Shown piece by piece: positions 4,934-39,063 of a DNA stretch of 64,000 nt. The translations under genes were made by a program, and so were the position numbers. Location: positions 1,225 to 65,224 of IMG/VR virus record IMGVR_UViG_3300006127_000012, one strand, 5' to 3'. The stretch's first letter is position 1; every line of letters begins with the position of its first letter. The stretch is from a virus (Duplodnaviria; Caudoviricetes). The notes below the pieces were generated by a model that searched no databases, was not told the DNA's origin, and saw only the letters and a list, made by a program, of their open reading frames with translations.

Positions 4934-5401
4934 TCAATTACCGATTTTTCGGTATACTCCGCTATAAGCAACCCATGTATAAACTTCGCCCTTTGATGTC
5001 AAACTGGTGACAGTATCAACAACTCCACCCGTAGCTCGTTCAATAGTCGTTACAGAAGTATTACTGGTGGTAACAATTATGCTATATGTGCCAGGATCAA
5101 CGCATTTAACTGTAAAGACCTTATTGTTTGCGCCAGCAGGAAGAGTAACAAGAATATCACTTCCTGTTGCGCTTGCATCACACAAAAGAATATCATGAGA
5201 AAGATTTGCTGTAAACGTAGCTGTAGAAACATAATTTACAGCTCTGGTGCTGGCAATCTTGTTTGACACATAAGTGTATAATGCATTGGATTGGAGGACG
5301 TATGTATTACCATCCGCCCTCTCAATCGCAAACAGATCAGTATCAGCGACACTAGAAGTGTTTGAAGTCTTATAGATGTCGCTATACTTTTTACCAGCCA
5401 T
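4934..5401 (-). CDS. Putative virion structural protein
   Basis: T/S/V-rich beta-type sequence (ILLCDASA...LVTLPA) in the late block. Confidence 0.55.
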   Translation of the reverse strand: MAGKKYSDIYKTSNTSSVADTDLFAIERADGNTYVLQSNALYTYVSNKIASTRAVNYVSTATFTANLSHDILLCDASATGSDILVTLPAGANNKVFTVKCVDPGTYSIIVTTSNTSVTTIERATGGVVDTVTSLTSKGEVYTWVAYSGVYRKIGN

Positions 5402-5413
5402 TTTATTTACTCA

Positions 5414-8652: not shown

Positions 8653-8663
8653 TAGGTTCTCCG

Positions 8664-9098
8664 TTATTTACCTGTAGCTCTCAACATCCAGCCATGTTTA
8701 GCATGAATATCTAGACGATCTTGTAGAAAATTCTCGATGCCACGATTATCAGCAGCGCCAGCTTCTTTAATTGCATCTTTGATTGTAGCCATGACTTTTT
8801 CGTTATCTGACAATAACGCTTTGATCATAGCTTTTGCATCAGGAATAGTTTCAATTGTATTTATTGAAGCTAGATCGCCGAATCTATTGTAGCTACCAGG
8901 AGCATATTCATCAAGAGTGCGGATATGTTCAGCAATGGCATCCACAGCTTCCCAAACTTCGTTATAAATCGTATCAAACAGAGAATGATACTGAGGGAAG
9001 TTTTCTCCCTCAACATTCCAGTGGAAGTAGTGCGTCTTCAAATAGAAGGTGAAGGAATCTGCCAGCACATTCTTCAGTTTATCGCCTAGAACACTCAT
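8664..9098 (-). CDS. dps: Dps/ferritin-like DNA protection protein
   Basis: KTHYFHWNVEG, HSLFDTIYNE, DAIAEHIRTL ferroxidase motifs; 144 aa. Confidence 0.93.
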   Translation of the reverse strand: MSVLGDKLKNVLADSFTFYLKTHYFHWNVEGENFPQYHSLFDTIYNEVWEAVDAIAEHIRTLDEYAPGSYNRFGDLASINTIETIPDAKAMIKALLSDNEKVMATIKDAIKEAGAADNRGIENFLQDRLDIHAKHGWMLRATGK

Positions 9099-19138: not shown

Positions 19139-21658
19139 CTATCCAAAAAAATCTTCCAAACTTGAAACTTCTTCAGTTTGCCAACCAATTGCGTTGCAAA
19201 CAATACTCAGTGGACGCAAGAAAGCTGCGTCGAATTGCCGATCATAGTCAATGTATTTTTCAAGCTCAAATTGCTTAGGTAATACATTTAGCACCGCGAA
19301 AACATCCTCTTGTAGAGTATTCGGGAGCTTCATGTAGCAATACTTGATTTTATCTCCATCGCTAATTAGATTATACTTCTTCTCCAATTTAAAGTCAAGC
19401 ACTAACTTGTTGAAAAGCAATGCGCCTCTTACATGAATAGGTGTCCCAGAACGATAAACGCTAGTCTTAGACTGATAGTCAGTCAGACTAGAACAACCAC
19501 GAGGAGAGGCAATAGTTTCAAAAGGAAGAGTCTTAAATTCATTACGGAAATTGTCAATAAACTGAATCAACTCAGACTGCGAACCCTGAATCATAATCCT
19601 CAGAGCTTCCTTAATCTTGTTGCGACAAATCTCAGGAGTTGAGGACTTGACCGCCTCGATGCCCATAATCTTCAGGTCAGGCTCTTTATAACGAACACCT
19701 TCGTTGTCCCAGACGTTCAGAATGTATCGCTTCTTGGCAGTCCAGATACCGCGATCAGCAATCGCCTCTCGCTTCATCTTCATATTCTGCATGTAAGCAT
19801 TAGTTTCGTCAGCCAGTCTTTGGAACGTCTCGTCAATAAGTGGCTCCAGCTTTTGCTGGCAAACCTTATCCAAGAAATTGACGGTCGTTTCCTTATCCTT
19901 TCCTGGGCAAGCCATGTTGACCAGATCACCAAGGCGCAGATAGATTGAGTCGGTGTCCGAAGCAATCACATAACGCTTACCTTTTTGATTCAGAAGTTTG
20001 TTGAGGTAATCCTCAACAGCTGTGCCGACATATTGAATGCCGTACTGACCAGAGAACGTAATAGCCTCAGCGAACTGAAGCATATACCAGCGGAAGTAAA
20101 TATTACCGACTGCGCCGAACAATGAGTTCAGAATAATCTTTTTGGCCATCTGCATATTATTGCACTTGGAAACTTCGGCGACCAGTCGCTTGATTTCTCG
20201 AGCATCGCCCGAGCCTTTGATCTTATTCAGTTCCTGCTTCGCTACACCAGTCTGCTTCTTCCACATGCTTCGGTCAGCATACATCTTCTCGACCAGCATC
20301 GGGAAGATGCCCTTCTCGGTCTTATCCCAAACTGTGCCGTTGGCGGCGATAGCCAGATTACCAACCTGAGCATTATCAAACAAATTCGGATTGATGCCTT
20401 CGTTCAACAGCTTTTCAATTGGAGGAAAGTTAGGCAGCATACCTGAATAAGTCTCGGGCGACATATTATACTGGACGATCAGGCTCGGATACAGCGAGTT
20501 GACGTCAAACGAAGCCACCCAGTCATGAACACCAGTAACTGGATCCATGACGAATGCGCCTTCAAACTGCTGGCTCTTAGAACCTCGCTTGGATGGATTG
20601 ACTACAACCTTTCGGTCAAGCATGAAGTTATGAATAATGATATCCCAAAGAAGCACTGAAGTGAAACAGTCTTCAAGGTTAATCTTAGCATCATAAGCAA
20701 TCGCGTAAGCCAGCTCAATCAGAGCCATCTTTTCGTCCAGCTTCTTGACCAGCTCAACATCTCGAACGTTGTATTCGATAAACTTCTGAGGATCTTTGAC
20801 GCTGAGCTCGTGAAGATTCTCGAACTCAGAATAATCCATCTTGCGCTCACCAAGCTCAACATAGGCAATATGATCAAGGCGATAAGATTCTTGTTTGGTG
20901 TAAGTAAACTTGGTATACAGTCGCTGATAATCGAGGGTGGCAATACCCATGATATCATAGCTCTTTTGTTCACGACCCCACATCTCGACTGACTTATCGC
21001 GAAGAACACCCCAAGGCGATAGCTTGAGAGGATACTCATCACCGAACAAACGCTTCAGTCGATTGACGATATAAGGAATGTCGAAGAACTCAATGTTCCA
21101 GCCAGTAAGAACGTCAAAGTCAAATGCCTGCCAATCCTTGACGAACTTGCGCATCATCTGAAGTTCGTCATCAAACAGCTGAGCAACGACATCTGGACGG
21201 TGAGCCTTGTAAGCTACCGTCGTATAGACATAGAACTTGTCTTGGAATTCAATTGTAATTGCATTGATCGGCTTGTCGGCGCGATCAGGATGAGGAAAGC
21301 CATCGTTCGACTCAACTTCGATATCGAAATTGCAAACACGGATAGCATCCTTATCATAGTCAACCTGACCAGGAAAGTCATCGTTCAGATAGGTATAGAC
21401 ATACTTGTCGAGACCATAGATCTCGAACCCTGAAACATCTTCATAATTTCCGCAGAATTCTTTAGCTTCCTTGATTGAATCAAAGTCAACCTTATCAACC
21501 ATCTTACCAGCGATGGTTCGATACTCAGGGTTGGGCTTCTTAGACGGAACGAAGAGATATGGCTTGTATTGTTCTTTCTTAGAAAAACGACGACCGTTCT
21601 CGAAACCACGGACGAAAATAATATTGCCGCGAACAAAAGCGGATGTGTAAAAACGCAT
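19139..21658 (-). CDS. gp43: Family B DNA polymerase
   Basis: DIEVES exonuclease, FDVNSLYPS, KIILNSLFGA, SDTDSIY, KKRY motifs. Confidence 0.98.
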   Translation of the reverse strand: MRFYTSAFVRGNIIFVRGFENGRRFSKKEQYKPYLFVPSKKPNPEYRTIAGKMVDKVDFDSIKEAKEFCGNYEDVSGFEIYGLDKYVYTYLNDDFPGQVDYDKDAIRVCNFDIEVESNDGFPHPDRADKPINAITIEFQDKFYVYTTVAYKAHRPDVVAQLFDDELQMMRKFVKDWQAFDFDVLTGWNIEFFDIPYIVNRLKRLFGDEYPLKLSPWGVLRDKSVEMWGREQKSYDIMGIATLDYQRLYTKFTYTKQESYRLDHIAYVELGERKMDYSEFENLHELSVKDPQKFIEYNVRDVELVKKLDEKMALIELAYAIAYDAKINLEDCFTSVLLWDIIIHNFMLDRKVVVNPSKRGSKSQQFEGAFVMDPVTGVHDWVASFDVNSLYPSLIVQYNMSPETYSGMLPNFPPIEKLLNEGINPNLFDNAQVGNLAIAANGTVWDKTEKGIFPMLVEKMYADRSMWKKQTGVAKQELNKIKGSGDAREIKRLVAEVSKCNNMQMAKKIILNSLFGAVGNIYFRWYMLQFAEAITFSGQYGIQYVGTAVEDYLNKLLNQKGKRYVIASDTDSIYLRLGDLVNMACPGKDKETTVNFLDKVCQQKLEPLIDETFQRLADETNAYMQNMKMKREAIADRGIWTAKKRYILNVWDNEGVRYKEPDLKIMGIEAVKSSTPEICRNKIKEALRIMIQGSQSELIQFIDNFRNEFKTLPFETIASPRGCSSLTDYQSKTSVYRSGTPIHVRGALLFNKLVLDFKLEKKYNLISDGDKIKYCYMKLPNTLQEDVFAVLNVLPKQFELEKYIDYDRQFDAAFLRPLSIVCNAIGWQTEEVSSLEDFFG

Positions 21659-21684
21659 GGGCACCTCATATCTTTCTATTATTC

Positions 21685-22925: not shown

Positions 22926-24101
22926 ATGACACAACTAACAGAACATTTTACTCTTGAGGAACTGATCGTTTCTCCAACCGCGAAGAAACTGGGTCTATCA
23001 AACACCCCAACTGCTCAGCATATTGAGAACATGAAGTATGTTTGCGAAAAGATCCTTGAGCCTGTTCGCGCACATTTCGGCAAGCCAGTAAAGATCAACT
23101 CTTCATATCGCTCACCTGCTGTCAATAAGGCAGTTGGTGGTTCGACAACTTCTCAGCACGTTAATGGCCAAGCTGTTGACTATGAGATTGAAGGAATTGA
23201 TAATAAGGTTGTTGCTGACTGGGTCGCTGACAATCTTGAATTCGATCAGGTCATTCTGGAGTTTTATACTGCAGGCGACAAGAATTCTGGTTGGGTTCAT
23301 ACCTCGATCAAGAAAGAAGGTGGCAATCGCAAACAACGGCTGATCGCTACGAAGTCTAAAGCTGGCGGAACTGTTTACAAGCCTGTTGCTGACTTTGATC
23401 CATCAACAACAAAGGATGCTGGTGCACCAGTCAATCCACAGATTACCGATTCGGTCACTCAGGCAGCAAAGCCAGCAGTCGCTGGACTTGGTCCGCTTCA
23501 GGCTCTTCAAGCCAAGTGCGGAGTTGCTGTGACTGGTGTTTGGGGTAAGGAAACTTATCTTGGAGCCAAGAAGCACTTCGGTCTATCAAATGCTCAGGCA
23601 GCTCATTTCTTCGGACAGTGTGCTCACGAGTCGAATAACTTCAAGGCATTCTCCGAGAACCTGAATTATTCGGACAAGGGTCTTAATGGAATCTTCAAGA
23701 AGTATTTCCCAACGATTGCTTCTACCGCTGGTTATGCTCGCAAGCCAGAGAAGATTGCTAACAAGGTTTATGCCAATCGCATGGGTAATGGACCAGAAAG
23801 CTCTGGGGACGGATATAAGTTTCGAGGTCGTGGGCCAATTCAGCTAACTGGGAAGCAAAACTACGCCGCACTTGCTCAAGCACTGGATCGTCCCGATGTG
23901 CTAACAAATCCCGACGTGGTAGCGGGAGAACTGGCATTTGAGTCGGCACTTTGGTTCTTCCGTAAGAATGGTCTGCTAGCAATTGCAGACAAAGGTGTGA
24001 CTGACGCTGTAATCACTCAAATCACCAAGAAGGTGAACGCCGGAACTATCGGTCTAGATGATCGTTTGAAAAAGACTAAGCAATTTGCTGCTTGGGGATA
24101 A
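22926..24101 (+). CDS. Endolysin: Peptidase M15 domain plus GH19 (chitinase-like) domain
   Basis: SSYRSP.VN.AVGGS..SQH..GQAVD (M15) and AHFFGQCAHES...GDGYKFRGRGPIQLTGKQNY (GH19). Confidence 0.9.
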   Translation: MTQLTEHFTLEELIVSPTAKKLGLSNTPTAQHIENMKYVCEKILEPVRAHFGKPVKINSSYRSPAVNKAVGGSTTSQHVNGQAVDYEIEGIDNKVVADWVADNLEFDQVILEFYTAGDKNSGWVHTSIKKEGGNRKQRLIATKSKAGGTVYKPVADFDPSTTKDAGAPVNPQITDSVTQAAKPAVAGLGPLQALQAKCGVAVTGVWGKETYLGAKKHFGLSNAQAAHFFGQCAHESNNFKAFSENLNYSDKGLNGIFKKYFPTIASTAGYARKPEKIANKVYANRMGNGPESSGDGYKFRGRGPIQLTGKQNYAALAQALDRPDVLTNPDVVAGELAFESALWFFRKNGLLAIADKGVTDAVITQITKKVNAGTIGLDDRLKKTKQFAAWG

Positions 24102-24105
24102 ATTT

Positions 24106-24136
24106 GAAGGGGGAGTTTAGCTCCCCCTTCTTTTTT
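24106..24136 (+). terminator. Rho-independent terminator between convergent endolysin and hsp20
   Basis: GAAGGGGGAG-tttag-CTCCCCCTTC followed by TTTTTT. Confidence 0.85.
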
Positions 24137-24608
24137 ACTTGGATGATTCGTTGATCTGAATTTTCTTTGGCTTATTAGCCTCAGGAACGATCGCTTCCAA
24201 CACAATCTTCAGAATACCGTTCAGAAGTTCGGCATTCTTAATTTCTACATTATCAGCAAGAGTAAATTGGCGAGTAAATGGTCGCAGCGCCAGTCCTTGA
24301 TATAGGAATTGTGGCCATGTCCAATTACCACCCGAGTCCTTCTCAGCAGGTTCGCCTGCATGAGTGTTGCCTTTGACGATAAGTTTGTCATCAACCATTT
24401 CGATTTCAAGATCTTGCTTACCGAAACCAGCTACTGCCAGCTCGATAGTATACTTGTTATCATCGATCTTCTTGATATTGTATGGAGGATAGTTTTGAGC
24501 AAGTTTTACAGTCTGCTCTGCGGCTTCTGATAGTCTCTTTACAAGAGGATCAAATCCAACAAAGAAACGATCGAAGTCCTTGAATGAATGATTAAAATCC
24601 CATGCCAT
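24135..24608 (-). CDS. Small heat-shock protein (Hsp20/IbpA-like)
   Basis: NYPPYNIKK, IELAVAGF, GLALRPFTRQFTLAD, LLNGILKI. Confidence 0.95.
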   Translation of the reverse strand: MAWDFNHSFKDFDRFFVGFDPLVKRLSEAAEQTVKLAQNYPPYNIKKIDDNKYTIELAVAGFGKQDLEIEMVDDKLIVKGNTHAGEPAEKDSGGNWTWPQFLYQGLALRPFTRQFTLADNVEIKNAELLNGILKIVLEAIVPEANKPKKIQINESSK

Positions 24609-24673
24609 AATTTTGCTCCTTATTAAGCGAGTTTCAGTTTTGATGTCCCATTAGGCGACATCGTTTTATTTAG
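24609..24673 (-). promoter_or_regulatory. Late promoter plus a two-hairpin, ROSE-like hsp20 leader
   Basis: CTAAATA (24667-24673); GATGTC/GACATC hairpin (24642-24662); CUC-G-CUU-AAU-AAG-GAG hairpin occluding the SD (24616-24631). Confidence 0.55.
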
Positions 24674-24864
24674 GCGAACGGATCCGCTTCCGTGTGCTTA
24701 AATTCACGATTTGTGTAATCATTAATGTAATCTTGAATTTCATTGATTCTATCTTCAACAATCCAACCGTGCGCCTGATCGTCATAGTCATGCCGAAGAA
24801 ACACAGTCTTAAGACCGTTTAAAGACTTCTGAATCTTGTCGATAGTTTCATCAGCCGATAGCAT
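24670..24864 (-). CDS. Hypothetical protein (last gene of the modification operon)
   Basis: 64-aa ORF overlapping the kinase stop. Confidence 0.65.
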   Translation of the reverse strand: MLSADETIDKIQKSLNGLKTVFLRHDYDDQAHGWIVEDRINEIQDYINDYTNREFKHTEADPFA

Positions 24865-25396
24865 TGCTGATCGCCTCCACCAATACAGCCTGTTCTTCTA
24901 GATTGTTGTTGTCGAATTCTTGAATATCAAACATCAGAATGAAGTTGCTACGGATATTGTTAATCTTGCTCTCGCGACCGCGAAGCCAAGTCTCATCCTG
25001 ATTGCTACCACGTTCCTTGTATCTTTCAGTGCGAACATCCTTATTTGTATTCAGATAGAACATGCTTGTTTCATAATTCTCAAAACAGTGCTCAAGGAAA
25101 GAAGAAGTCGAAAGGCGATCGCCCTCAAAAATGACAACAGAGTCAGGAGCAGCCTTATTCAAGTTTTCGAGAAACTTAATTGCCTGAGGCTGAACAGCCA
25201 TGGACATTCGATCAGTGCCACCAAAGACCTGACCGTCTTCATACTTACCGAGGATGAAGATATTTCCCTTCTTGTGAAAGGGAACTAGCTTAAAACTTTC
25301 GTTGATCGTCTTATCGAAGCCATACTTTTCCATCAGCTTCTTCATCAACGTGGTTTTGCCACTACCTGGCTCACCAAAAATCGCAATCACCTGCAT
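24851..25396 (-). CDS. P-loop nucleotide kinase (DNA-modification associated)
   Basis: GEPGSGKTT Walker A, FGGTDRMS, VIFEGDRL, RY..RGS.Q.E.WL.GRE. Confidence 0.75.
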   Translation of the reverse strand: MQVIAIFGEPGSGKTTLMKKLMEKYGFDKTINESFKLVPFHKKGNIFILGKYEDGQVFGGTDRMSMAVQPQAIKFLENLNKAAPDSVVIFEGDRLSTSSFLEHCFENYETSMFYLNTNKDVRTERYKERGSNQDETWLRGRESKINNIRSNFILMFDIQEFDNNNLEEQAVLVEAISNAIG

Positions 25397-26400
25397 GCAA
25401 AAAATTCCTCTAATCCAGCTTTTGAAGAAACATCATCAAACATCCAATCCATGCGACTGATTGTTTTCGTGGCGACGTATTCGCCAAACTTTTCCTTATT
25501 AATACCATACCGCGAATCTAATTTAAAGTAAAGCAGTTCTTTCCTTGATTGCCATAATACATCCCAATCAATACCGTGCCAACCATCAGAAGCAACTTGT
25601 TTAATTTCCTCAGCCTGACGATCTAGGTAATATCCCAAGTAACGAGAAGAATGCGAGCGAAAGATCTTCTTAAAAGCACAAAGTGCAGTTTCCATCGTAA
25701 ACGCATCAAAGTCATTCTTATGATCAGGAAAGCGACTGCGAAGTTCTGTCAGAATAGACTTCGACTCGCCTTCTAGCCATGCATATTCCTTTTCGGTCAG
25801 CTTCTGGTTGATCCAATCTTCCTTGCCCAAAGCATAGCACAAACCGTTACGATGGCTTTTACTTCCGCTATAGTCATTCAGCATAAGACTAGTCGGCTCA
25901 ATGATAAAATCAGCAGTATGCTTCAGGTGCTGCATGTAAAACCATGTCGTGTAGCGACCGAACTTGTGATAGTTATTATTGACTACTTTCCAGAGATTGT
26001 CAAAGTTCTGGTTCTCATTATCACCATAGTATGACTCAAGAACTTCACGCTGAGAACGCTTGCCTATAAACTTCTGATAAGAAGCAAACATCGAGGGAAG
26101 ATGGCCCTTGTTATACTTCGTGTCAGTCTGATAGCGGAGACGCTTGTAATTCTCAGTGTTCCACCATTCAATACGATCTACAGTCGCCAGCTCATAGTCA
26201 GGGAATTCGTTCTTAAGAACCCACGAAGTCGGCAGATAATAGGTGTTGCCGTAGAGCCAGCAAAGCCAGATGCGTTCTTCGTCATTATGCTCATATCGCT
26301 TATTCAGATAATTGGTGAGCCATACGGCAGGATCGCAATCTTTATATGCGACCGACCAAGCATACCACTTAATGAAAAGCTCACGGGAAGTGTTTGTCAA
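25387..26400 (-). CDS. aGPT-PPlase clade 2 / amino acid:DNA transferase-like protein
   Basis: WLYGNTY, RLRYQTDTKYNKGHL, KFGRYTTWFYMQHL, ETALCAFKK, YLGYYLDRQAEEI; HhH-glycosylase-like helical family recognised from memory. Confidence 0.7.
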   Translation of the reverse strand: MTNTSRELFIKWYAWSVAYKDCDPAVWLTNYLNKRYEHNDEERIWLCWLYGNTYYLPTSWVLKNEFPDYELATVDRIEWWNTENYKRLRYQTDTKYNKGHLPSMFASYQKFIGKRSQREVLESYYGDNENQNFDNLWKVVNNNYHKFGRYTTWFYMQHLKHTADFIIEPTSLMLNDYSGSKSHRNGLCYALGKEDWINQKLTEKEYAWLEGESKSILTELRSRFPDHKNDFDAFTMETALCAFKKIFRSHSSRYLGYYLDRQAEEIKQVASDGWHGIDWDVLWQSRKELLYFKLDSRYGINKEKFGEYVATKTISRMDWMFDDVSSKAGLEEFFACR

Positions 26401-26803
26401 GAGCCAAATCCACCATCTTAATTACTTGCTTGTGAAGCTCATTACCCTGAGCGAAATGCGGATCGGGAATCTTATGAACACCGATGATACTACCAAGACG
26501 CTTTGCTTTGTCGAAAACTTCTTTTCCGAACTTGTCTTCCAGCTTGCGCTCGTTACTATCGTCCATGTAGAAAATGACATCAGCCCAGTCAACCAACTCT
26601 TGGCTGATAGGAGTTGAGCGAAGTTCTCCGGGATATCCCATTTCAACCAACGCTTCGCGCATCTTCTTGGCAGTTCTTTCGTTGCCCTTTGTATCTTTCA
26701 GGGCAGCACTCTTAACTTCCCAGTCAGGCTTCTTCGCTTTGAGAATAATTTCTCCAGCTGCACTACGATTGATATTGCCATGACAGACAAAGAGAACCTT
26801 CAT
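26381..26803 (-). CDS. Low-molecular-weight phosphatase (LMW-PTP/ArsC fold)
   Basis: VLFVCHGNINRS (CX5R) and IPDP motifs. Confidence 0.9.
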   Translation of the reverse strand: MKVLFVCHGNINRSAAGEIILKAKKPDWEVKSAALKDTKGNERTAKKMREALVEMGYPGELRSTPISQELVDWADVIFYMDDSNERKLEDKFGKEVFDKAKRLGSIIGVHKIPDPHFAQGNELHKQVIKMVDLALDKHFP

Positions 26804-27771
26804 AGCGTCTTGATCACTTCATAGACCTGAGCAGCCGTGACATTCTTAATGTCGTCAATATCAATATGCTTTCTGATATTAGCCAGACGTTCCTTAACTT
26901 CCTTGCGGCTGTTCGTGTCGAAGTTAGTATACTGATAGACCTGCTCGGTCTTGTAGTCATAAGTCTGGAAGTCAGGGAAAGCGAAATCGTTAGCCCAATA
27001 GATATCCCGAGGACTGACATCTTCCTGATTCAAAGCAGCATCCATGAATAGCTGACACCAGCGGATAGCTGATTCCATTTCAACCATATTCAGAGTGCCA
27101 GGGAAATGACGAAACTCGATGGTGTTGGTTTCTTCAAACATCTGGCGGAGATTAATGCCAGCGCGAGGAGAGAAATACCACATGCGACCCTTCTCAGTCT
27201 TTGGCGCATGTTCTTCGTAGAATTCCTGAGTAGTGGTAGCAGCAAGCATCGCAGCAACTCGCGACTCAGGCAGCTTATACTGGTGAGACTTCTTACGACG
27301 CTTCATTCGCTTCAAAGCACCCTGATATTCATCCTCAGTCATGCTGCCTTTGGTCGGAACAGGAATTGTCTCAACAATGTCGAACGCTTCTTCTTGATAG
27401 CGATCAATGTAGCGAAGCAGCTTCTTACAGGATTCAAGATCATCCTTCAGCCCAGGAACACGAATATGAATATGAAGGTTGCTTCGATAATTCACCAGAG
27501 CAGCAGGATCAAGAGCAGCATTAATTTCGGAGATATGATCAATCTGCTCCTGGATTGTATAGGTTGGCTTCGTGTTAATTTCGCCACCGTATGCATATAG
27601 CTCACCAACAGGATCGTTTGCAATGCCTGTGCTACTTACGCAGGTATTATCCTTATCGTTCCACTGAGCGCCAGCAGGCAGAGCACCAAAACGATAACAA
27701 TTACCGTATTCAAGCTCTACGCCATAAGACCAGTCATCAATTGAAAAATTCTTCAAGGTCGCCTCCTGCAT
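26800..27771 (-). CDS. Putative amidoligase (COOH-NH2 ligase type)
   Basis: YGVELEYG, GGEINT, SNLHIHI, RAGINL, TIEFRHFPGT. Confidence 0.8.
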   Translation of the reverse strand: MQEATLKNFSIDDWSYGVELEYGNCYRFGALPAGAQWNDKDNTCVSSTGIANDPVGELYAYGGEINTKPTYTIQEQIDHISEINAALDPAALVNYRSNLHIHIRVPGLKDDLESCKKLLRYIDRYQEEAFDIVETIPVPTKGSMTEDEYQGALKRMKRRKKSHQYKLPESRVAAMLAATTTQEFYEEHAPKTEKGRMWYFSPRAGINLRQMFEETNTIEFRHFPGTLNMVEMESAIRWCQLFMDAALNQEDVSPRDIYWANDFAFPDFQTYDYKTEQVYQYTNFDTNSRKEVKERLANIRKHIDIDDIKNVTAAQVYEVIKTL

Positions 27772-28534
27772 TATTCAAAACATTATCTTCATATGCCTTC
27801 TTAAAGGCGATGCGCATCTTCAGCCCAACTTCAAGAGCCTGATTCTTAGCACCAGGAGCTTCACGCAGGGTCACATACTTAGGATGAAGATCGCGCAGAC
27901 GAATCATCGCGTTACGATTCTTTTCGGAAGTGCGAGTTGTCGAGCAACCACCAGGAGCATTGGCTTTCTTTTCAACGGAAATGAATTCACCGCTGTAGTG
28001 AAGACGCTTGCCAGTCTCAAGAACAGAAAGTGGAATATGGAAATCCTCAAACAATTCCATATCGTCAAACCGAATATTATGCCGAGCCATGTAATCACGA
28101 TTCAGAAACGGAGCAGCACTTGGCTTGCCGTAGAAATATTCTTCCGGTCGTTCAAAAGAACGGAAAGCATTAGAAAGACTGCAGAATACGTCGCCTTCCT
28201 GGAGCCACTTCTCCATAAGGTCGAGGAATTCTCCACAGTCTGCCAGCTTATGATTCTTTGTCTTGACTACAGGGTCACGCTTGAAAAACGAAAGGTCGTC
28301 GTCAAGCTGACCGACCAGAGGACTAGTCGATTGTTCGATAATCCACTGACGAGTTTTGCCAATATTACCGATGCACCATTCAGGAACATCCACACGATTT
28401 GGCCAGTCGTGCTGTTCGTCTTTCGGACAAACAAGAAATACTCGATCCTTCCAGCGATCAGGGATCGAGTTAAGCGTATACTGCTTGCCTTCGCGCTTGA
28501 GCGTAGGAATATAAACCATCAGGTTGGAGGTCAT
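27737..28534 (-). CDS. GT-A fold glycosyltransferase (TET-associated/GREB1-like)
   Basis: VYIPTLKR, IGKTRQWI, QLDDDL (DxD), FEDFH..L, GGCS motifs. Confidence 0.75.
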   Translation of the reverse strand: MTSNLMVYIPTLKREGKQYTLNSIPDRWKDRVFLVCPKDEQHDWPNRVDVPEWCIGNIGKTRQWIIEQSTSPLVGQLDDDLSFFKRDPVVKTKNHKLADCGEFLDLMEKWLQEGDVFCSLSNAFRSFERPEEYFYGKPSAAPFLNRDYMARHNIRFDDMELFEDFHIPLSVLETGKRLHYSGEFISVEKKANAPGGCSTTRTSEKNRNAMIRLRDLHPKYVTLREAPGAKNQALEVGLKMRIAFKKAYEDNVLNNAGGDLEEFFN

Positions 28535-29201
28535 TTACTGTCACTTTCTCTTCACGGATGAGATTTATTTCATCATCAATTGTATATACAACCCCAGCAA
28601 TCGCTGGTTCGATTGAAAATGGATATTGTGTTCGAACAAGAACATCCTTCGTAGAACTCAATATAACTCCGTTATGTAAATAAGTAAAGCATAAAGGTCG
28701 CTTTCCGTTGCGATAGAATTTCATCTTCTTAGAAGAATGAAGCTCAATAGCAGAAATGGATGCATCTGGCCAAGACTCAAAGGCAGACTTGTTTTCTTTG
28801 ACCGTATGGAAAAGAAGTTCGCTATCGTTTTTAGTTTCGCATTTATAGCCATAAAGCTGCTGCCACGATTCAGGCAGCTCTTGACTAATCACACCGTTAT
28901 GAACCAAGCTCATATCTTCGTCAGAAAATGGCTGGTTATATTCAAGGTCACTGGTGCTATAACGACAATGACCAACCATGTAGAAATTGCCATCCTCGTT
29001 GATCATCGAAGAAAAATCAAGAGGAGCCAAAAACTCATCGGCTGGCTTTGGTTCTTTTAGAGTATGGATTTTGCCATCCTTAAGATACGACAACCCTGTA
29101 GCATGCATTCCGCGAATACGAGACTCGCGGAACACAGCTTTAACAAGTTCTAGATCTTCAATGGATGGAGACTTTATAATTGCCCCAATCACACCACACA
29201 T
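28470..29201 (-). CDS. Class II glutamine amidotransferase (Ntn hydrolase)
   Basis: N-terminal MCGVIG, GHCRYSTS, HNG, NDSE. Confidence 0.9.
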   Translation of the reverse strand: MCGVIGAIIKSPSIEDLELVKAVFRESRIRGMHATGLSYLKDGKIHTLKEPKPADEFLAPLDFSSMINEDGNFYMVGHCRYSTSDLEYNQPFSDEDMSLVHNGVISQELPESWQQLYGYKCETKNDSELLFHTVKENKSAFESWPDASISAIELHSSKKMKFYRNGKRPLCFTYLHNGVILSSTKDVLVRTQYPFSIEPAIAGVVYTIDDEINLIREEKVTVNDLQPDGLYSYAQARRQAVYA

Positions 29202-30580
29202 CAGAAGAATGCCTCCAGAGCGGATGGTTCTTGATATGCGCTAGGATGATATTTCTTAACGACTTCCTTACCTAGCTTGGCTTCAAGGTAGTCATACCAT
29301 TCCTGTTCTTCCCACATTCCAGGAGACACACCGTTCCAAAGATTACGCTGAAGGCGATGGTCTTTATTGTGGCGGCGATCTTCTACAAACTGGCGACGAG
29401 CTTCTTCATATTCATATGAACCAAGCTCAAGCATCTTTTCGCGGAAGTAACAAACCAGCGAAATACGTTCATTGGTCGGGTCGTCAGGATTGTTTAGAAC
29501 GATAGGAGTATTGCCGTGGATAATTTCGTGGTTATTAACCAGAAGCAAATCGCCAGGACGAACGTTCACAGCTACGCGCAGCTCAGGAAATACCAGATAA
29601 CCGCCAGTGTATTCACCAGTTCCGACAACCAGAAGATTGCTAAGACCATCGTTCAAATCACCAGCATCGCGATGAGCTGCAGTCCGGAAAGACTTATTCA
29701 CAGTAATGGTAGTGAATACAGTTTCAGGAACAAGATAACGCGAATCTAGCTTATCAGCCGCAGCCTTTTGATTAGACCAGCGCCAAGGCAGAAGTTCCTT
29801 GAATCCGCGATTTAGAGACTGAAGGAAAGGATATGCCTTCTCAAACTTCTTAGGATACTTTTCGGTGTAGGCAGTTGCGCGACCGTAAGGAATACGAGGA
29901 TAGCGGTCATACCAGCCAGCAACGCCAGAGAAAACCGACTTGGCATAGTTAGTCACGCTGATCCAATTATCGTGGACATGCTTAGCAGCCTTGATCTGTT
30001 CATCTTCAGTCAGCTTTTCAACCATAGCAACCCACTTGTCGAACCAGCCATGGTACTGCGGATATACAGCCTCAACCTGACTGCGAAGCCAGACACGACC
30101 ACGAGTTTCGTCTGAAGGAGGATTGTTACCATGACGACGACGAATATCAGCCAAAGTTTCGTCATCAATAAGAGCTTCGCGAGGACGCATCAGCCAGCTG
30201 AGAACATCAGTCTCATAATCAGTCACCCAGTCACGACCCTGCCGACCTTCAGTCGACAACATATCGCCACGAGGACCAGCAGCCATGCCACGATTCTGGC
30301 TTTCGGAAGCAGCTTCCCTCAGCCCGACATAGGCTTGCTCTTGTTCTTCTTTAGTGAAGAAGTTTTTACGGAATTTGAAAGCAATTCGCTTTTCGTCTGG
30401 ACCAATATCACAATTGGAGCAGTCAATTTCACACATAGCCTTTTGAGTGATATCACAGTCGGCAGGAAGATAGCCATCGCAGTCTTCGTTGATTACAATA
30501 TCATAATGGCTTTCGTCTAGAAATTGACCCAGTAGATGTTCACAGTCATGTTTTTCTTCAGCAACAATGATCTTAACCAT
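29201..30580 (-). CDS. TET/JBP-like 2-oxoglutarate/Fe(II) dioxygenase
   Basis: FTTITVNKSFRTAAHRDAGD (HxD), GGYLVFP, HGNTPI, RISLVCYFRE. Confidence 0.88.
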   Translation of the reverse strand: MVKIIVAEEKHDCEHLLGQFLDESHYDIVINEDCDGYLPADCDITQKAMCEIDCSNCDIGPDEKRIAFKFRKNFFTKEEQEQAYVGLREAASESQNRGMAAGPRGDMLSTEGRQGRDWVTDYETDVLSWLMRPREALIDDETLADIRRRHGNNPPSDETRGRVWLRSQVEAVYPQYHGWFDKWVAMVEKLTEDEQIKAAKHVHDNWISVTNYAKSVFSGVAGWYDRYPRIPYGRATAYTEKYPKKFEKAYPFLQSLNRGFKELLPWRWSNQKAAADKLDSRYLVPETVFTTITVNKSFRTAAHRDAGDLNDGLSNLLVVGTGEYTGGYLVFPELRVAVNVRPGDLLLVNNHEIIHGNTPIVLNNPDDPTNERISLVCYFREKMLELGSYEYEEARRQFVEDRRHNKDHRLQRNLWNGVSPGMWEEQEWYDYLEAKLGKEVVKKYHPSAYQEPSALEAFF

Positions 30581-30612
30581 GCTCGTATCCTTCGCTTTGA
30601 TTCATATTATAT

Positions 30613-30641
30613 AGATAACCTGATTTGGATATTAAGTAAAG
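30613..30641 (-). promoter_or_regulatory. CTTTAC-N17-TTATCT promoter heading the modification operon
   Basis: GCTTTACTTAATATCCAAATCAGGTTATCT; shares the GCTTTACTT and TCAGG elements. Confidence 0.6.
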
Positions 30642-30647
30642 CAGTAA

Positions 30648-31055
30648 TTAGTATTTCTTGCTACCAATACTATACTTTGCTACACAATTCCATTGAGCCT
30701 TGTTCTTGAATGGAATGATTTTAATGTGGGAAACAGGAACCACAGGGTCTTTGGTCTTGTCCGATAAGATCTTAATTAGATCCCATTCTTCAAGTAGATT
30801 GGCGATAGTATTACGTCTAGCCATATCGTTTTCAGAAAAATCAGTGTTCTTCTTGCCATCAAGGAGAAAGAGTTCCTTAAAGTGCATGATGTAGTACTTG
30901 CCTTGCTTGTGCAAAATGTGACATGACTGATACAGCGTATTATCCTTCTTGGAAGCAACACCGATACGAGTCAAAGTCTCTTTAACAAGCAAAAAGTTAT
31001 CAGGATTTACTAACGAAATTTCAATCAGATCTTCAATCATACTACTATCCACCAA
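30648..31055 (-). CDS. regA: Translational repressor
   Basis: DNFLLVKETLTRIGVAS...LYQSCHILHKQGKYYIMHFKELF.LDG. Confidence 0.97.
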   Translation of the reverse strand: MVDSSMIEDLIEISLVNPDNFLLVKETLTRIGVASKKDNTLYQSCHILHKQGKYYIMHFKELFLLDGKKNTDFSENDMARRNTIANLLEEWDLIKILSDKTKDPVVPVSHIKIIPFKNKAQWNCVAKYSIGSKKY

Positions 31056-31434
31056 TTTTTATTTTTTCTTTTATGGCGGCGATTTGGTCAGCAGACAAAA
31101 CATTTAACGCTTCTTCAGCTCGACGCAGACTATACTTGAAATAAGCAGCCACCGCCTGAGCATCTTCAGAAACAACTTTCTTTGCCTGCTTTCTGAATCG
31201 CTTCCTTTTATTTATTGAATTCAAAAAGTAGTCAAATTGCATCTGAGCAGGAAGATCGTAATACTTATTCATTTCATTAGCATACAAGATACTATCCTCA
31301 AAATAGGACAGAGTCTTGTTAGTAATCCATGCGTTGTATCCCTTAATTTCTATTTCTGGGTTTGGCGAATTCCTAACGATGTCAACCTTTTCGTGGCTGA
31401 CAGCGTTAGTAAAGTCAAAGGGAGACCTGCTCAT
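31045..31434 (-). CDS. gp62: Clamp loader small subunit
   Basis: ANEMN...QMQFDYFLNSI.KRKRF; located between gp44 and regA. Confidence 0.9.
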   Translation of the reverse strand: MSRSPFDFTNAVSHEKVDIVRNSPNPEIEIKGYNAWITNKTLSYFEDSILYANEMNKYYDLPAQMQFDYFLNSINKRKRFRKQAKKVVSEDAQAVAAYFKYSLRRAEEALNVLSADQIAAIKEKIKIGG

Positions 31435-32369
31435 TTGAAAGAACAGTTCACCATGATTTCAAGGAACGCAGCTGCCATATTGATTTCTTGGTTAGCCACG
31501 AATGCTGCCTGATGCTGATATCGAGCAAGAATAAGAATCAAATCTGGAATGCTGTTCGCCTCGATAAGATCATAGGCGTAGTCATAGAGATTTTTGAAAA
31601 GAACATCAGTGTCGACATCAGAGTTTTCGCCAACCCAACGGCGAACCGCAGGAAAATCCTTGCTCTTCAGGAAGCCAACGAGAGTCTTGAACGATTCCTG
31701 AGAGAAGTTAACAAGAATACCTTCATCAATCTTGCCAGTTACCGAATAACGCTGAATTTCGTTAAGAACACGACGCCAGTCAGGATAGTATTGAGTGATA
31801 ACTGCTGCAATCACTTTCTTATCGTATTGAATACCTTCAATATCAAGAATATTACATGCACGCTTAAGGAACTGAGCCGCCAAACTAGGAAGATCAGCCT
31901 TCTTAATCTTAAAATCAATAACAGAACAACGAGAATGCAGAGGGGAGATGATTCTTTTTGCAAAATTACAGGTCATAATAAACCCACAATTTGTGGAATA
32001 TTCTTCCATGAAATTACGAAGACCTGGTTGCACATGATTCGCGTCCAGATAATCAGCCTCATCAAGAATAATATATTTTCGACCACCAGTAAAACTGACC
32101 GCAGACGCATAACTAGCCAGAGCGTTACGAAGAGTTCCTTTGTCGGCGTTCAAAGAACCATTGATTACGATATAATCACAACCAAGCTCTTCAAGCATAG
32201 CTTTAGCGATTGTAGTTTTACCGCAACCTGCTGAGCCAGAAAGCAGTAGGTTTGGGACATTCTTCTGATTCACAAACTCTTGGAATGTTTTCTTGAGTTG
32301 ATCAGGAAGGATACAAGTCTCAACGGTCTTAGGGCGATACTTCTCGACCCAAAGAAAATCTTCACTCAT
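31431..32369 (-). CDS. gp44: Clamp loader large subunit
   Basis: LWVEKYRP, GSAGCGKTT, ILDEAD, SRC. Start moved to ATG 32369 (GGAG RBS). Confidence 0.97.
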   Translation of the reverse strand: MSEDFLWVEKYRPKTVETCILPDQLKKTFQEFVNQKNVPNLLLSGSAGCGKTTIAKAMLEELGCDYIVINGSLNADKGTLRNALASYASAVSFTGGRKYIILDEADYLDANHVQPGLRNFMEEYSTNCGFIMTCNFAKRIISPLHSRCSVIDFKIKKADLPSLAAQFLKRACNILDIEGIQYDKKVIAAVITQYYPDWRRVLNEIQRYSVTGKIDEGILVNFSQESFKTLVGFLKSKDFPAVRRWVGENSDVDTDVLFKNLYDYAYDLIEANSIPDLILILARYQHQAAFVANQEINMAAAFLEIMVNCSFK

Positions 32370-32391
32370 AATATATTCTCCATAATATAAT

Positions 32392-32442
32392 AAAAAAGAC
32401 TGGTATCGCGGTCGCAAAACACCTTCACGACCGCGATACCAG
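32392..32442 (-). terminator. 15-bp stem with a U-tract between gp45 and gp44
   Basis: ctggtatcgcggtcg/cgaccgcgataccag (32400-32442), 13-nt loop, followed on the minus strand by TCTTTTTT. Confidence 0.7.
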
Positions 32443-32452
32443 CCGAATCAAA

Positions 32453-33112
32453 TCAAGCGAAAGTCGAATTGCTTTCAGTTGCAATCCAGTAGGTGCTGTT
32501 TTCGCTAGTAAAGCGCGAGATCTTCTTGCTCGACACTTCAACCTTATACTTGGTCGAAACGAGCTTCGAGAGATACTCAGGCTTGAACACGACAGTGAAC
32601 GTATGATCCGAATCACCAATGGCGATATTGAATTCATCCGACCCGACATCCTTGCTGTTCACAGCACGGACATAGAGCTTGCCGTCTTCACCAACAATCG
32701 CAATTTCAGGCAGCTGGAGAATACCAGTCGCCTTCAGTACGGTGCCAAGAGCTTCGGGTGAAAGTTCAAAGGTCACTTCAGGCTCAGGAAAGTTAAGTTC
32801 CTTAGCAGGGGCAGCAACGAAAAGATTTTCGTCACAGAACCGATAAACAACCTTCTTATCGCCACCCTTGATCACGAGATCGCTAGAACGAATCTCAATT
32901 TCAGGGGCATCAAACAGCGAAAGGATGCCAAGGAAACGCGAAAGATCATAGATCGAAAATCCGCTTTCAAAGGTATCTTCGATCGTCGCCTTGGCGAGCA
33001 GAGTCTTAAGAGGCGAGATCGTCGCCAGAGTATTTCCGGGAGTAATCTTAATACTCGGATTAATCTGAGAAAAGCTCTTAAGAACTGCAATGGTACCGTC
33101 ACTCAACTTCAT
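32453..33112 (-). CDS. gp45: Sliding clamp
   Basis: MKLSDGTIAVLKSFSQINPSI, IYDLSRFL, YWIATE. Confidence 0.95.
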   Translation of the reverse strand: MKLSDGTIAVLKSFSQINPSIKITPGNTLATISPLKTLLAKATIEDTFESGFSIYDLSRFLGILSLFDAPEIEIRSSDLVIKGGDKKVVYRFCDENLFVAAPAKELNFPEPEVTFELSPEALGTVLKATGILQLPEIAIVGEDGKLYVRAVNSKDVGSDEFNIAIGDSDHTFTVVFKPEYLSKLVSTKYKVEVSSKKISRFTSENSTYWIATESNSTFA

Positions 33113-33158
33113 AATATTCTCCATTCTTTAAGGTATCAGTCATTATTCGACTATTATC

Positions 33159-33192: not shown

Positions 33193-34155
33193 TTATGCCT
33201 TCTTACCCAACTTAGATGGATCAGCCGTAGCACTGACGCCGATCGAAGCAATGTCAGCCAGCGAACCACCGAACGTATACGAACCAGTGTGAGCCAGCTT
33301 AATCCAAGGAGCCAACCAGACCTTCAGACCAATTCGACGCGACCACTGACAGAACATGTAATCTTCTGACAGGTAACGATTCGAGTATTCAAATCCGAAT
33401 GCGCTATTCTTGGTGTCGTCAACGAAAGCGATGATTTCATCAGGAGTTGCCGTAGGATTCAGGCGAAGGAACTCACGCATTTCCTTACGGATCTGGGCAT
33501 GCTTATTGTCGATCAGAGCATCGAAGTAAGCAAGGATTTCGCGCGAACCGTCGAACGCAGCAGTGCGCACGTGGTCAGGCTTGTAGTGATATTCAGGATA
33601 TGCATCGCGGAACTTTTCAAGAGCCGAACGACGAATCATCATGAAGCCAGTGCCCGACTCGAGAACTTCTTCAGGCTGATCGAGACGAATCTGACCCGAA
33701 CCGTTGGCAGGGTTAAACACATAGTCACCAACGAACTTCTCAAGAACATTAGGATCATTGTCGGCAACACCAAGGTCACAAGCAGCCTTGATCTTTTCCC
33801 AGCTGATGCACTTCTTAGGATATGGCGCACAAAGAACGTCATATTCAGAATCTTCGCTCATCAGAGCCAGCATCGCGATGACATCATTAGCATCGAACGT
33901 AATGTCCGAGTCAATGAACAGCATGTGGCTGCAATCAGAACGAAGGAACTCATCGGCGCAATAGTTGCGCGCACGAGTGATTAGCGATTCGTTGAACAGG
34001 TAATAATACCGAACATTGATTCCGTAATGAGCAGCCATGGCTGTCAAATCATTCGATGCCTTGGCGAAAGAACCGTGGCACATACCGCCATACATTGGGA
34101 CTGCGACTAGAAGCGAACGCTGACGCAGTGAATTGATGTCAACTGAAATTTCCAT
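33193..34155 (-). CDS. GT-A fold glycosyltransferase-like protein
   Basis: VAVPMYGG, ESLITRARN, FIDSDI (DxD), GTGFMMIRR, YLSEDYMFC, HTG. Confidence 0.7.
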   Translation of the reverse strand: MEISVDINSLRQRSLLVAVPMYGGMCHGSFAKASNDLTAMAAHYGINVRYYYLFNESLITRARNYCADEFLRSDCSHMLFIDSDITFDANDVIAMLALMSEDSEYDVLCAPYPKKCISWEKIKAACDLGVADNDPNVLEKFVGDYVFNPANGSGQIRLDQPEEVLESGTGFMMIRRSALEKFRDAYPEYHYKPDHVRTAAFDGSREILAYFDALIDNKHAQIRKEMREFLRLNPTATPDEIIAFVDDTKNSAFGFEYSNRYLSEDYMFCQWSRRIGLKVWLAPWIKLAHTGSYTFGGSLADIASIGVSATADPSKLGKKA

Positions 34156-37445: not shown

Positions 37446-38515
37446 GCAATGTTTACCGCTTCATTATACAATGTCCTGAAAAGCGAATCAAGTTTTGTCT
37501 TATCGACATCAGTCACCATACCCTCAATGGATTTATGGAGAACAGTCAAAGTATCGTCAAGGTTTTCTAGAATATCTTCGTCTTCGACCATATCGAGATT
37601 TAGATTGTCATCAACGATCTGAACGTGAATAGGATCTGACTTCTCGACTTTATCCATGAAAAGGTCGAACCAATATGGGTTGTTCTTATTCACAACAATC
37701 ACTTTGACGTAAGTGTCTTTCAGGCTCGCAAAATCAAACTTATTGATTTCTTCTGCGTCTTTCCACTTAATATCGTTATACGTGATCTTATTAAATAAAG
37801 CAAGAGGATTATGCACGAACTCCAATTCAGTCGTTTCCGTGTCGAAAACGTGAAATCCTTTTTGGTCGTTATAATCAGACCATGTCATCTCATATTGACA
37901 GCCAAGGTAATGAATATTGCCACGACTAGACTTGTGGTGGAAGTGACCAGAACAAACAGCATCGAAACGAGAAAACGTTTCAGCTGTCATCCCGCCACTA
38001 TGAACAGCACCACGATGCATCTCAAAACCACTGAGCTCAAGGTGACCCAGAAGAACATCAGCAGATGAATTTTCAATCAAATCCATAGACCTGTCGAAGT
38101 TGTCCGAACAGATCCATGGCATAAATGCTATCTTTTTTCCGCCGAGCATAACTTCCGTAGGATCAGAATATACTGTGATGTAATCAGCATATTCATTTAG
38201 CAGAAGCTGCGGAGAGTTTACTTCGTTGGTGTTTTTATAGAACGTGTCGTGGTTTCCGACGATCAAGTCCATGTGAATATTGTATTCAACTAGTTTATCA
38301 AAAAAGAACTTCCTGCAGCGATAAAGAGAAAGGAAGTTGATATATTTACGGCGATCGAAAATATCGCCAAGATGAACGATATGTGTAATATTGTTTTCAA
38401 GTAGGTATGGGAAAAACACATCGCTATAGAATTTATCCATAAACGAACTGAGTTGTTCGCTATCGTTTCTGCCACCAAAATGGGTGTCGTTCAGAAATGC
38501 AATTTTCATAATCAA
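37442..38515 (-). CDS. gp47: Recombination endonuclease subunit (SbcD/Mre11-like)
   Basis: DTHFG, HLGDIFD, GNHD, GHLE, SGHFH. Confidence 0.97.
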   Translation of the reverse strand: MIMKIAFLNDTHFGGRNDSEQLSSFMDKFYSDVFFPYLLENNITHIVHLGDIFDRRKYINFLSLYRCRKFFFDKLVEYNIHMDLIVGNHDTFYKNTNEVNSPQLLLNEYADYITVYSDPTEVMLGGKKIAFMPWICSDNFDRSMDLIENSSADVLLGHLELSGFEMHRGAVHSGGMTAETFSRFDAVCSGHFHHKSSRGNIHYLGCQYEMTWSDYNDQKGFHVFDTETTELEFVHNPLALFNKITYNDIKWKDAEEINKFDFASLKDTYVKVIVVNKNNPYWFDLFMDKVEKSDPIHVQIVDDNLNLDMVEDEDILENLDDTLTVLHKSIEGMVTDVDKTKLDSLFRTLYNEAVNIA

Positions 38516-39063
38516 TCCTCAATGAAATTCTCAAGAGCCTTCTTTTCTTCCTTCTTCTTTTTGTTCTTTTGAATATTGTTCTCAAAAGTGGCGATGAATC
38601 TCTGAGTGTTTTCGTGGAATTCGGCAGAGATAATATGTCCGCCGTCACTATCCTGAGAGGAGAAGTTTTCGTTGTGAATCAGCATATTCTGCATGCTCTT
38701 GTATTTCACATACTGCTGCTTCTTTTCCTTTTGGATTCTATGAATAAAAGAATGCCAGACAATCTGAGTAAAGTACGAGAAGGGATTCGTTGACTTATCT
38801 GGGTTGAAGCTCTTAATATAGTGGATACAGTTCTCAATTCCGTCGCCGATCATCTCGTCCTTATACGAGTAATTCATGAAGTTAGGCTTATTCGATAACT
38901 TCGTGGCGATCTTGTAGAAACACTCTCCGATATAATTTGGGATGATTGGGATTTCTTTTTCAGCAGCTACTGCTTCACGACAAGATTCTATATACTTCTT
39001 CATCTCTTCATAGAATCGTTTATTGTCAATATAGTATACTGATGTTCTTTTCTTTGCTGCCAT
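38512..39063 (-). CDS. gp55: Late-transcription sigma factor
   Basis: YIGECFYKIA..LS.KPNF.NYSYKDEMIGDGIENC, NPFSYFTQI. Confidence 0.97.
   Translation of the reverse strand: MAAKKRTSVYYIDNKRFYEEMKKYIESCREAVAAEKEIPIIPNYIGECFYKIATKLSNKPNFMNYSYKDEMIGDGIENCIHYIKSFNPDKSTNPFSYFTQIVWHSFIHRIQKEKKQQYVKYKSMQNMLIHNENFSSQDSDGGHIISAEFHENTQRFIATFENNIQKNKKKKEEKKALENFIED

Follow-up and report, generated by a model that had tools for sequence, protein, structure and literature searches.

The window analyzed here, a 64,000-nucleotide fragment of a 65,224-bp IMG/VR contig (IMGVR_UViG_3300006127_000012) from an uncultured T4-like phage, carries on its minus strand a compact operon that, in our assessment, is most likely devoted to post-replicative thymidine hypermodification. 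From position 30580 to 24670 it comprises eight open reading frames (ORFs), coding for seven enzymes and one protein of 64 amino acids (aa), with zero intergenic gaps. In gene order, and with the presence of a polymerase-like C-terminal peptide (the tail, considered below) indicated for each enzyme, these are:

29201-30580, minus strand: TET/JBP-family 5-methylpyrimidine dioxygenase (TET), predicted thymine dioxygenase; 459 aa, ends SALEAFF
28470-29201, minus strand: stand-alone class II (Ntn) glutamine amidotransferase (GATase_6, hereafter GATase); 243 aa, starts MCGV, no tail
27737-28534, minus strand: TET-associated glycosyltransferase (TAGT); 260-265 aa, ends GGDLEEFFN
26800-27771, minus strand: Amidoligase_2 (glutamine-synthetase-like COOH-NH2 ligase); 318-323 aa, no tail
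26381-26803, minus strand: low-molecular-weight (LMW) phosphatase (LMWPc; ArsC-like family); 140 aa, no tail
25387-26400, minus strand: amino acid:DNA transferase (AADT; Pfam ADDT; formerly aGPT-Pplase); 337 aa, ends AGLEEFFACR
24851-25396, minus strand: P-loop kinase (Ploopntkinase3), predicted 5-hydroxymethyl-deoxyuridine (5-hmdU) DNA kinase; 181 aa, no tail
24670-24864, minus strand: 64-aa ORF, overlapping the kinase gene by 14 nucleotides (nt); no function assigned

Successive genes overlap by 1, 65, 35, 4, 20, 10 and 14 nt with the longest-ORF starts, in agreement with the 1-65 nt given in the initial annotation of this DNA, and they still overlap with the starts of the public gene calls (TAGT at 260 aa, amidoligase at 318 aa). 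The 64-aa ORF has zero Pfam or PHROG matches, and none was seen in the related cassettes discussed below; public assemblies of this phage annotate it as a gene.

Family membership was judged by Pfam bit scores against the curated cut-offs, with PHROG profiles as a second check. By these hidden Markov models (HMMs) each of the seven proteins scores above its cut-off, and the families named in the initial annotation are upheld over unrelated functions, for the TET fold also by a predicted structure. The dioxygenase matches PF12851 (Tet_JBP) at 91.7 bits versus a cut-off of 34.9 (E 3.7e-26), and its H303 and D305 (HxD), H355 and R372, which are invariant in 25 homologs, constitute the Fe(II) triad and the 2-oxoglutarate arginine. 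Its AlphaFold (AF2) model (predicted local distance difference test, pLDDT, 82; predicted template modeling score, pTM, 0.74) recovers NgTET1, CcTet, human TET2 and CMD1 as the best Foldseek matches (E 1.7e-9 to 4e-7). The GATase (PF13522, 47.8 bits versus 27, E 1.9e-12) has its catalytic cysteine right after the initiator methionine, and this MC(G/A) start is kept in homologs. The TAGT is a marginal match to PF20691 (28.9 bits versus 27.5), with PHROG 842 as its second match (3e-30); a large protein search returned 43 homologs at 52-74% identity that carry PF20691, and a pattern-based search of IMG/VR for TAGT relatives found zero. The remaining assignments are the amidoligase (PF12224, 34.5 bits versus 22, E 2.6e-8), the LMW phosphatase (PF01451, 62.8 bits versus 23.2, E 5.4e-17), with the C-x5-R-S P-loop CHGNINRS (residues 7-14) and, close to its C-terminus, a DP motif, the AADT (PF18724, 71.9 bits versus 26.2, E 8.5e-20; PHROG 3271, 5e-53) and the kinase (PF18751, 48.2 bits versus 27, E 1.2e-12), with the Walker A motif GEPGSGKT at residues 8-15.

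The N-terminal ~230 residues of the TET protein are conserved, and we considered whether they might be a fused ParB domain. This was rejected, there being zero Pfam ParB matches; further, Foldseek aligns up to 390-505 columns of the model to TET2 and CcTet, and no ParB is among the listed matches. On the evidence of the model, this region appears to be part of an extended TET-like body. Within it, residues ~38-62 (window 30400-30470, minus strand) form a Cys-rich insertion with four cysteines and pLDDT below 50, which only some homologs have, others showing a different sequence or a deletion there (alignment A1). Two possibilities are a small zinc knuckle and an equivalent of the ‘variable insertion’ on which ParB dependence hinges in published enzymes.

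Substrate of the dioxygenase and the cassette in related phages

While the initial annotation had the dioxygenase acting on 5-methylpyrimidines in general, the family assignment stands and the predicted substrate can be narrowed to thymine, no methyltransferase having been found while a thymidylate synthase is present. The genome of the window phage is 36% complete by CheckV, and genome-wide absences were assessed on five relatives that are 92-100% complete (G001-G005, of which G002 and G003 are complete). There are zero matches to the C5-methyltransferases (PF00145) or to the ThyA-type synthases/hydroxymethylases (PF00303) in the contig or in these five genomes, and the contig and all five encode ThyX, which in the window lies at:

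1240-1821, minus strand: ThyX (flavin-dependent thymidylate synthase); PF02511, 1.2e-41; contig position G000:C1:2464-3045

With ThyX, this phage makes thymidine monophosphate (dTMP), not 5-hmdUMP. The presence of ThyX, along with the absence of C5-methyltransferases and ThyA-type enzymes, thus argues that the DNA is made with ordinary thymine and contains neither 5-methylcytosine (5mC) nor pre-made 5-hmdU, leaving the dioxygenase no visible substrate other than thymine in DNA. Judging from this gene content, the substrate is almost certainly thymine and not 5mC. The TET locus also shows the genomic mark of a T-dioxygenase, namely the lack of an adjacent C5-methyltransferase, and the phage TET/JBP enzymes of clades C1 and C2, shown to be T-dioxygenases, are found alongside GATases, P-loop kinases and AADTs (O'Toole et al., PNAS 2026, PMC13229309). 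The co-located gene for a ParB-like activator that defines the ParB-dependent subclass of 5mYOX enzymes was not found: ParB_N (PF02195) yields no match at E<=1 in the contig and none at E<=0.1 in the five relatives, with the proviso that a too-divergent ParB could escape the HMM.

An AADT-based search of IMG/VR recovered 92 related stretches, the best 80 of which were kept for comparison of loci. The core of TET, GATase, AADT and kinase is seen in about 80 IMG/VR loci of this set, and most loci that are long enough share the order TET, GATase, a variable slot, AADT, sometimes a ~150-aa protein, and kinase; the minimal cassette has only the four core genes (L068). The GATase is found in nearly every cassette and directly follows TET in most tabulated loci, and the kinase mostly follows the AADT, directly or one small gene later. 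The variable slot contains GNAT acetyltransferases, radical-SAM/B12 enzymes, small 2-oxoglutarate-Fe(II) oxygenases, a GT1-like glycosyltransferase, amidoligases and unannotated proteins of 430-510 aa; in the window it is occupied by TAGT, amidoligase and LMW phosphatase. The cassette is combinatorial in its tailoring genes, as had been anticipated in the literature. One sub-group of relatives has, behind the kinase, a gene (L005:9536-10651, plus strand) that matches Pfam DruA (Druantia protein A, 1.2e-11), which places a member of a defense-system family inside a phage hypermodification cassette.

The particular combination found in the window recurs. On 15 public contigs of this phage the operon is identical; in locus L114, which has a TAGT 74% identical to that of the window, all seven families recur in unchanged order behind a helicase gene; and the more distant L116 and L117 have the same seven families permuted as GATase-amidoligase-phosphatase-TAGT-AADT-kinase-TET, in which the GATase no longer follows TET. 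L073/L078 have an unrelated GT1-like enzyme in place of TAGT, next to the same amidoligase and LMWPc. Amidoligase, LMWPc and a glycosyltransferase hence travel together in five independent cassettes (window, L073/L078, L114, L116 and L117). That the gene set is kept through rearrangement and non-orthologous replacement argues for one joint pathway, and this comparative genomic pattern is good evidence that the pathway includes a sugar. Megablast of the operon against cultured phages gave zero matches, and the cultured relatives of TET (from DLP6, Cr30 and C48C1; 47-52% identity) have other neighbor genes.

Polymerase-like tails on the modification enzymes

Three of the seven enzymes share an ending of the form L-E-x-F-F (TET SALEAFF, TAGT GGDLEEFFN, AADT AGLEEFFACR), and the DNA polymerase of this phage terminates in the same peptide, its late sigma factor in a similar one. 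These two proteins and the sliding clamp are encoded at:

19139-21664, minus strand: family B DNA polymerase, gp43-like; 841 aa, PF00136 and PF03104, ends SSLEDFFG (the reference tail)
38512-39063, minus strand: gp55-like late sigma factor; 52% identical to the DLP6 late sigma factor, ends KALENFIED
32453-33124, minus strand: gp45-like sliding clamp, the proposed docking partner; PF09116, 1.3e-12, with homologs in the relatives

When the 422 ORFs of 40 aa or longer contained in the six frames of the window were scanned for the strict pattern L[DE]x[FLMIVWY][FYW] in the last 9 residues, only four had it: the polymerase, TET, TAGT and AADT. Relaxing the pattern a little brings in gp55 as well as a single short ORF that is probably spurious. 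Given the frequency of the motif in the long ORFs of the window, the chance that at least three of the eight operon proteins bear it is ~8e-8.

The tails are conserved and appear to evolve in step with that of the polymerase. The TET tail is kept in 25 of 25 aligned homologs; the AADT tail, as G/S-L-E-x-[FLI], in nearly all of 80 tabulated homologs; and the TAGT tail is clear in 12 of the 15 close homologs inspected (out of 43). The GNAT acetyltransferases of related cassettes are also tailed, and the GATase, amidoligase, LMW phosphatase and kinase are without a tail in the window, L114, L116 and L117. The polymerases of relatives end in SLEDFFG, SLEGFFG, SLESFFG, SIDDFFG or SLEDLFT, and in G001 the same Phe-to-Leu change is found throughout (polymerase LEDLF, TET LADLF, AADT LEDLF). 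Almost the only proteins with the motif in the complete genomes G002 and G003 are the polymerase, TET and AADT. In the TET model, the tail follows a coil and forms a short helix of low confidence. The possibility that the tails are a by-product of overlapping reading frames was rejected, as they persist with a different downstream gene in L116/L117.

In T4, the tails of gp43, gp55 and gp33 are hydrophobic-acidic, interchangeable ligands of the gp45 clamp that follow a flexible linker, and the T4/RB69 epitopes are likewise short peptides at the extreme C-terminus after a linker of variable length (PMC2988020). The TET, TAGT and AADT tails have this very character, being hydrophobic-acidic extreme C-termini like that of the phage's own polymerase, and the gp43 and gp55 homologs of the window phage carry the same peptide as the three enzymes. 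Unlike the T4/RB69 ligands, the peptide is here on a dioxygenase, a glycosyltransferase and an AADT, and on GNATs in relatives, for which clamp binding is putative. In our literature search, no report of such tails on hypermodification enzymes came to light. To our knowledge, none of the dioxygenase, glycosyltransferase, AADT and GNAT families is a known clamp client. We propose that TET, TAGT and AADT are probably recruited by gp45 to newly replicated phage DNA, a role read from their C-terminal sequences. Such tethering would parallel that of DNMT1 by PCNA in eukaryotes. Together with the modular variation among relatives, the polymerase-like tails are a point absent from the initial annotation.

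Comparable tails occur beyond the cassette and in cultured phages. In G003, a 321-aa protein (97844-98809, plus strand; locus L095) ends in SAPLDFFLG and is a candidate clamp client outside the cassette. In the cultured phage DLP6 (L001), TAGT (5057-5920), which is annotated as hypothetical, and TET (8001-9347) end in LSSFFN and LGDFFV, respectively; the TET homologs of DLP6 and of Caulobacter phage Cr30 (L002, 8001-9329) are mis-annotated as ‘SNF2 DNA repair protein’. As FF-tailed TAGT and TET are found in a cultured phage, DLP6 and Cr30 offer culturable systems for studying the putative clamp-tethered modification of thymine.

A proposed pathway and its alternatives

Previous work has found TET_JBP, 5-HMUDK, aGPT-Pplase, amidoligase and amidotransferase genes co-associated in virome contigs, without assigning roles to the last two, and has defined kinase and AADT as the pair that converts 5-hmdU to 5-phosphomethyl-deoxyuridine (5-PmdU) and then to an amino-acid adduct (Lee et al., NAR 2021, PMC8989533). 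The initial annotation, which had predicted a hypermodification pathway without being able to match its product to a characterized one, is thereby supported, since the literature lists the same co-associations without assigning a product to them (PMC8989533; PMC13229309). The scheme that we infer here, in every chemical step, in the order of tailoring, in the final product and in clamp binding, would begin with hydroxylation of thymine in polymerized DNA by the TET/JBP dioxygenase to give 5-hydroxymethyluracil (5hmU). The P-loop kinase would then phosphorylate the new hydroxyl to yield 5-PmdU, and the AADT would swap the phosphate for a nitrogen or oxygen nucleophile, which may be an amino acid or glutamine-derived ammonia, the latter giving 5-aminomethyl-dU. 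The ammonia option is suggested by the presence of the GATase in nearly every cassette.

These three steps follow established knowledge of the families, and for the later ones we infer the following. The GATase may supply ammonia to the AADT or to an ATP-dependent amidation. The amidoligase would build an amide on the amine, on the carboxylate of the attached amino acid, or on a small-molecule precursor of the adduct; the GNATs of the sister cassettes fit an amine acceptor. The LMW phosphatase may dephosphorylate an intermediate or any 5-PmdU left unused, and the TAGT would place a sugar on a free hydroxyl, either of 5hmU or of the side chain. The dioxygenase, glycosyltransferase and AADT, i.e., the tailed enzymes, are those that must find their sites on DNA, and gp45 would take them to the newly replicated phage DNA, filling the role that a ParB-like protein has for other phage T-dioxygenases. 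Conjecturally, the modification would protect the phage DNA against restriction or CRISPR.

Two alternatives concern the chemistry itself. The operon might generate two parallel products, with part of the 5hmU being glycosylated by TAGT to a base-J-like glucosyl-5hmU, the rest being turned into an amino or amide adduct by way of kinase and AADT, and the phosphatase, through conversion of 5-PmdU back to 5hmU, tuning the ratio of the two. Such a counterpart to the kinase would indeed explain the LMWPc, phages with mixed thymidine modifications are viable (PMC8989533), and TAGT and TET do exist without the other enzymes: in Stenotrophomonas phage DLP6, TAGT (PF20691, 9.9e-10) is one gene upstream of TET, both are FF-tailed, and the 17-kb stretch covered by the analysis is devoid of AADT or kinase. 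However, the joint travel of glycosyltransferase, amidoligase and LMWPc as a unit in five independent cassettes speaks for one joint product, and we rate the two-product scheme as a serious but less likely alternative. A pathway in which the dioxygenase makes 5-hydroxymethylcytosine (5hmC) from 5mC, followed by glycosylation or amination as in the phage C5-methyltransferase/TET clusters, has precedents in the clade A/B phage TETs that act so and in T-dioxygenases some of which oxidize 5mC in vitro (PMC8256090; PMC13229309). It is highly improbable here, given that PF00145 is absent from the contig and the five near-complete relatives, that kinase and AADT belong to thymidine pathways, and that C5-methyltransferases occur in only 6% of mined 5mYOX pathways in the literature.

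A further alternative concerns the tails, which might serve as the dock for another hub, such as the single-strand-binding protein or a helicase loader, or as a stability signal, with the enzymes acting independently of gp45. In its favor, the T4 alpha- and beta-glucosyltransferases failed to co-purify with gp45 in a recent study, and the kinase works without a tail. Nevertheless, the peptide is shared with the polymerase of the same phage and resembles the gp55 tail, both proteins being classic gp45 ligands; it follows the changes of the polymerase tail from genome to genome; and it is essentially limited to the polymerase and DNA-modifying enzymes in the window and two complete relatives, plus gp55 in the window. 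We accordingly find a non-clamp dock unlikely.

Several points weigh against our preferred reading of a thymidine-hypermodification operon whose tailed enzymes are recruited by the clamp. The kinase acts on DNA in the published pathway, yet is untailed, which means that the tail as a mark of DNA-acting enzymes is not a clean rule; and a 2025 preprint, which used C-terminally tagged enzymes, did not reproduce the gp45 binding once proposed for T4 alpha-glucosyltransferase. On the side of the chemistry, the roles given to the GATase, amidoligase and phosphatase are guesses. The Pfam score of the TAGT is barely above its cut-off; the AADT has no PDB match by phmmer or profile, no solved relative having been found by sequence, and its model is poor (pLDDT 56). 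Finally, with the window genome only 36% complete, the absence of a methyltransferase rests on the relatives.

Neighboring genes, parallels and implications

The operon adjoins the regA and clamp-loader genes, as the initial annotation had noted and the upstream neighbors corroborate. The flanking features are:

30606-30635, minus strand: sigma-70-like promoter match, TTAATA-18-TATAAT, 10 of 12 consensus positions, in the regA-TET spacer
30648-31055, upstream of the operon: regA; PF01818, 1.9e-41
31045-31434, upstream of the operon: gp62-like clamp-loader subunit
31431-32417, upstream of the operon: gp44-like clamp-loader subunit
22926-24101, convergent with hsp20: endolysin-like gene; Peptidase_M15 and Glyco_hydro_19

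The regA-TET spacer measures 67 nt. The single phage promoter of the initial annotation finds its counterpart in the one sigma-70-like match there, but is not established by it, as promoter-like sites in the region are at the level of shuffled sequence (14 versus 13.4); no TATAAATA late promoter was found here. A single promoter for the operon is thus plausible but unproven. At the other end, the hsp20 gene (24135-24608) comes 61 nt after the operon, and between it and the convergent endolysin-like gene is a strong 11-bp GC-rich hairpin followed by a T-run (24106-24130, plus strand), which is probably a bidirectional terminator ending the transcription unit of the operon and hsp20. Beyond the clamp gene, a 320-aa protein (33193-34155, minus strand) without a clamp tail gives weak matches to GT-A-type glycosyltransferases (Glyco_transf_21/GT2/Anp1, E ~1e-3). 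Its homologs (45-57% identity) sit between the cassette and the clamp gene in L019, L027 and L068, directly after the kinase or one small ORF later, and it may be a conserved gene of the clamp neighborhood rather than a member of the cassette.

The literature already describes the core of dioxygenase, GATase, AADT and kinase as a thymidine-hypermodification architecture of metaviromes (Lee 2021; O'Toole 2026), and the operon is not a new kind of system. It shares with the clusters of Lee et al. and O'Toole et al. the same families, the same logic of in situ conversion of T to 5hmU, phosphorylation and nucleophilic substitution, the co-association of GATase and amidoligase, and the lack of a dUMP hydroxymethylase and a C5-methyltransferase. 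It differs from them in the tailoring module of TAGT, amidoligase and LMW phosphatase, and its dioxygenase in the conserved ~230-residue N-terminal region and polymerase-like tail that distinguish it from the published clade C1 enzymes tied to such machinery, which need a neighboring ParB-like activator on duplex DNA, whereas no ParB_N was detected in the contig of the window phage or in the five near-complete relatives. The cultured pathways of Salmonella ViI (5-NeOmdU), Pseudomonas M6 (5-NedU) and PaMx11 (N-alpha-GlyT/5-NmdU) likewise use a 5-HMUDK-type kinase and an AADT on DNA, followed by tailoring. However, these phages incorporate 5-hmdU pre-replicatively through dUMP hydroxymethylase and tailor with pyridoxal phosphate (PLP), radical-SAM or flavin enzymes, as against ThyX with a dioxygenase, and GATase, amidoligase, phosphatase and glycosyltransferase, in the window phage; the AADT of the window has no sequence-detectable match to any solved chain; PaMx11 gp46 is one AADT with a solved structure. 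Trypanosomatid base J, made by JBP1/2 and a glucosyltransferase, is alike in the hydroxylation of thymine in DNA and subsequent glycosylation, but its pathway is eukaryotic and regulatory, is without a kinase, AADT or amidoligase branch, and its JBPs reach DNA via their own J-binding domain and not a clamp.

As a recurrent and well-defined cassette, the operon could reveal a new base. Hypermodifications of phage DNA decide whether it is cut by restriction enzymes, CRISPR nucleases and other defenses, and are a source of new DNA-chemistry enzymes. The clamp tails also bear on the disputed binding of T4 alpha-glucosyltransferase to gp45, and offer a simple candidate answer to two questions of the 2026 T-dioxygenase paper, namely how post-replicative modification is made efficient and what substitutes for ParB. 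More broadly, we tentatively suggest, as a possibility to which we would not yet commit, that in T4-like phages the sliding clamp replaces the ParB-like activator and is needed on duplex DNA, that the dioxygenase, AADT, glycosyltransferase and, in relatives, the acetyltransferase form a clamp-client assembly line behind the fork, and that the seven enzymes make an undescribed thymine derivative with a sugar and an amide-linked group. If true, the action of the clamp would explain the apparent inactivity of ParB-less clade C1 enzymes expressed alone in E. coli.

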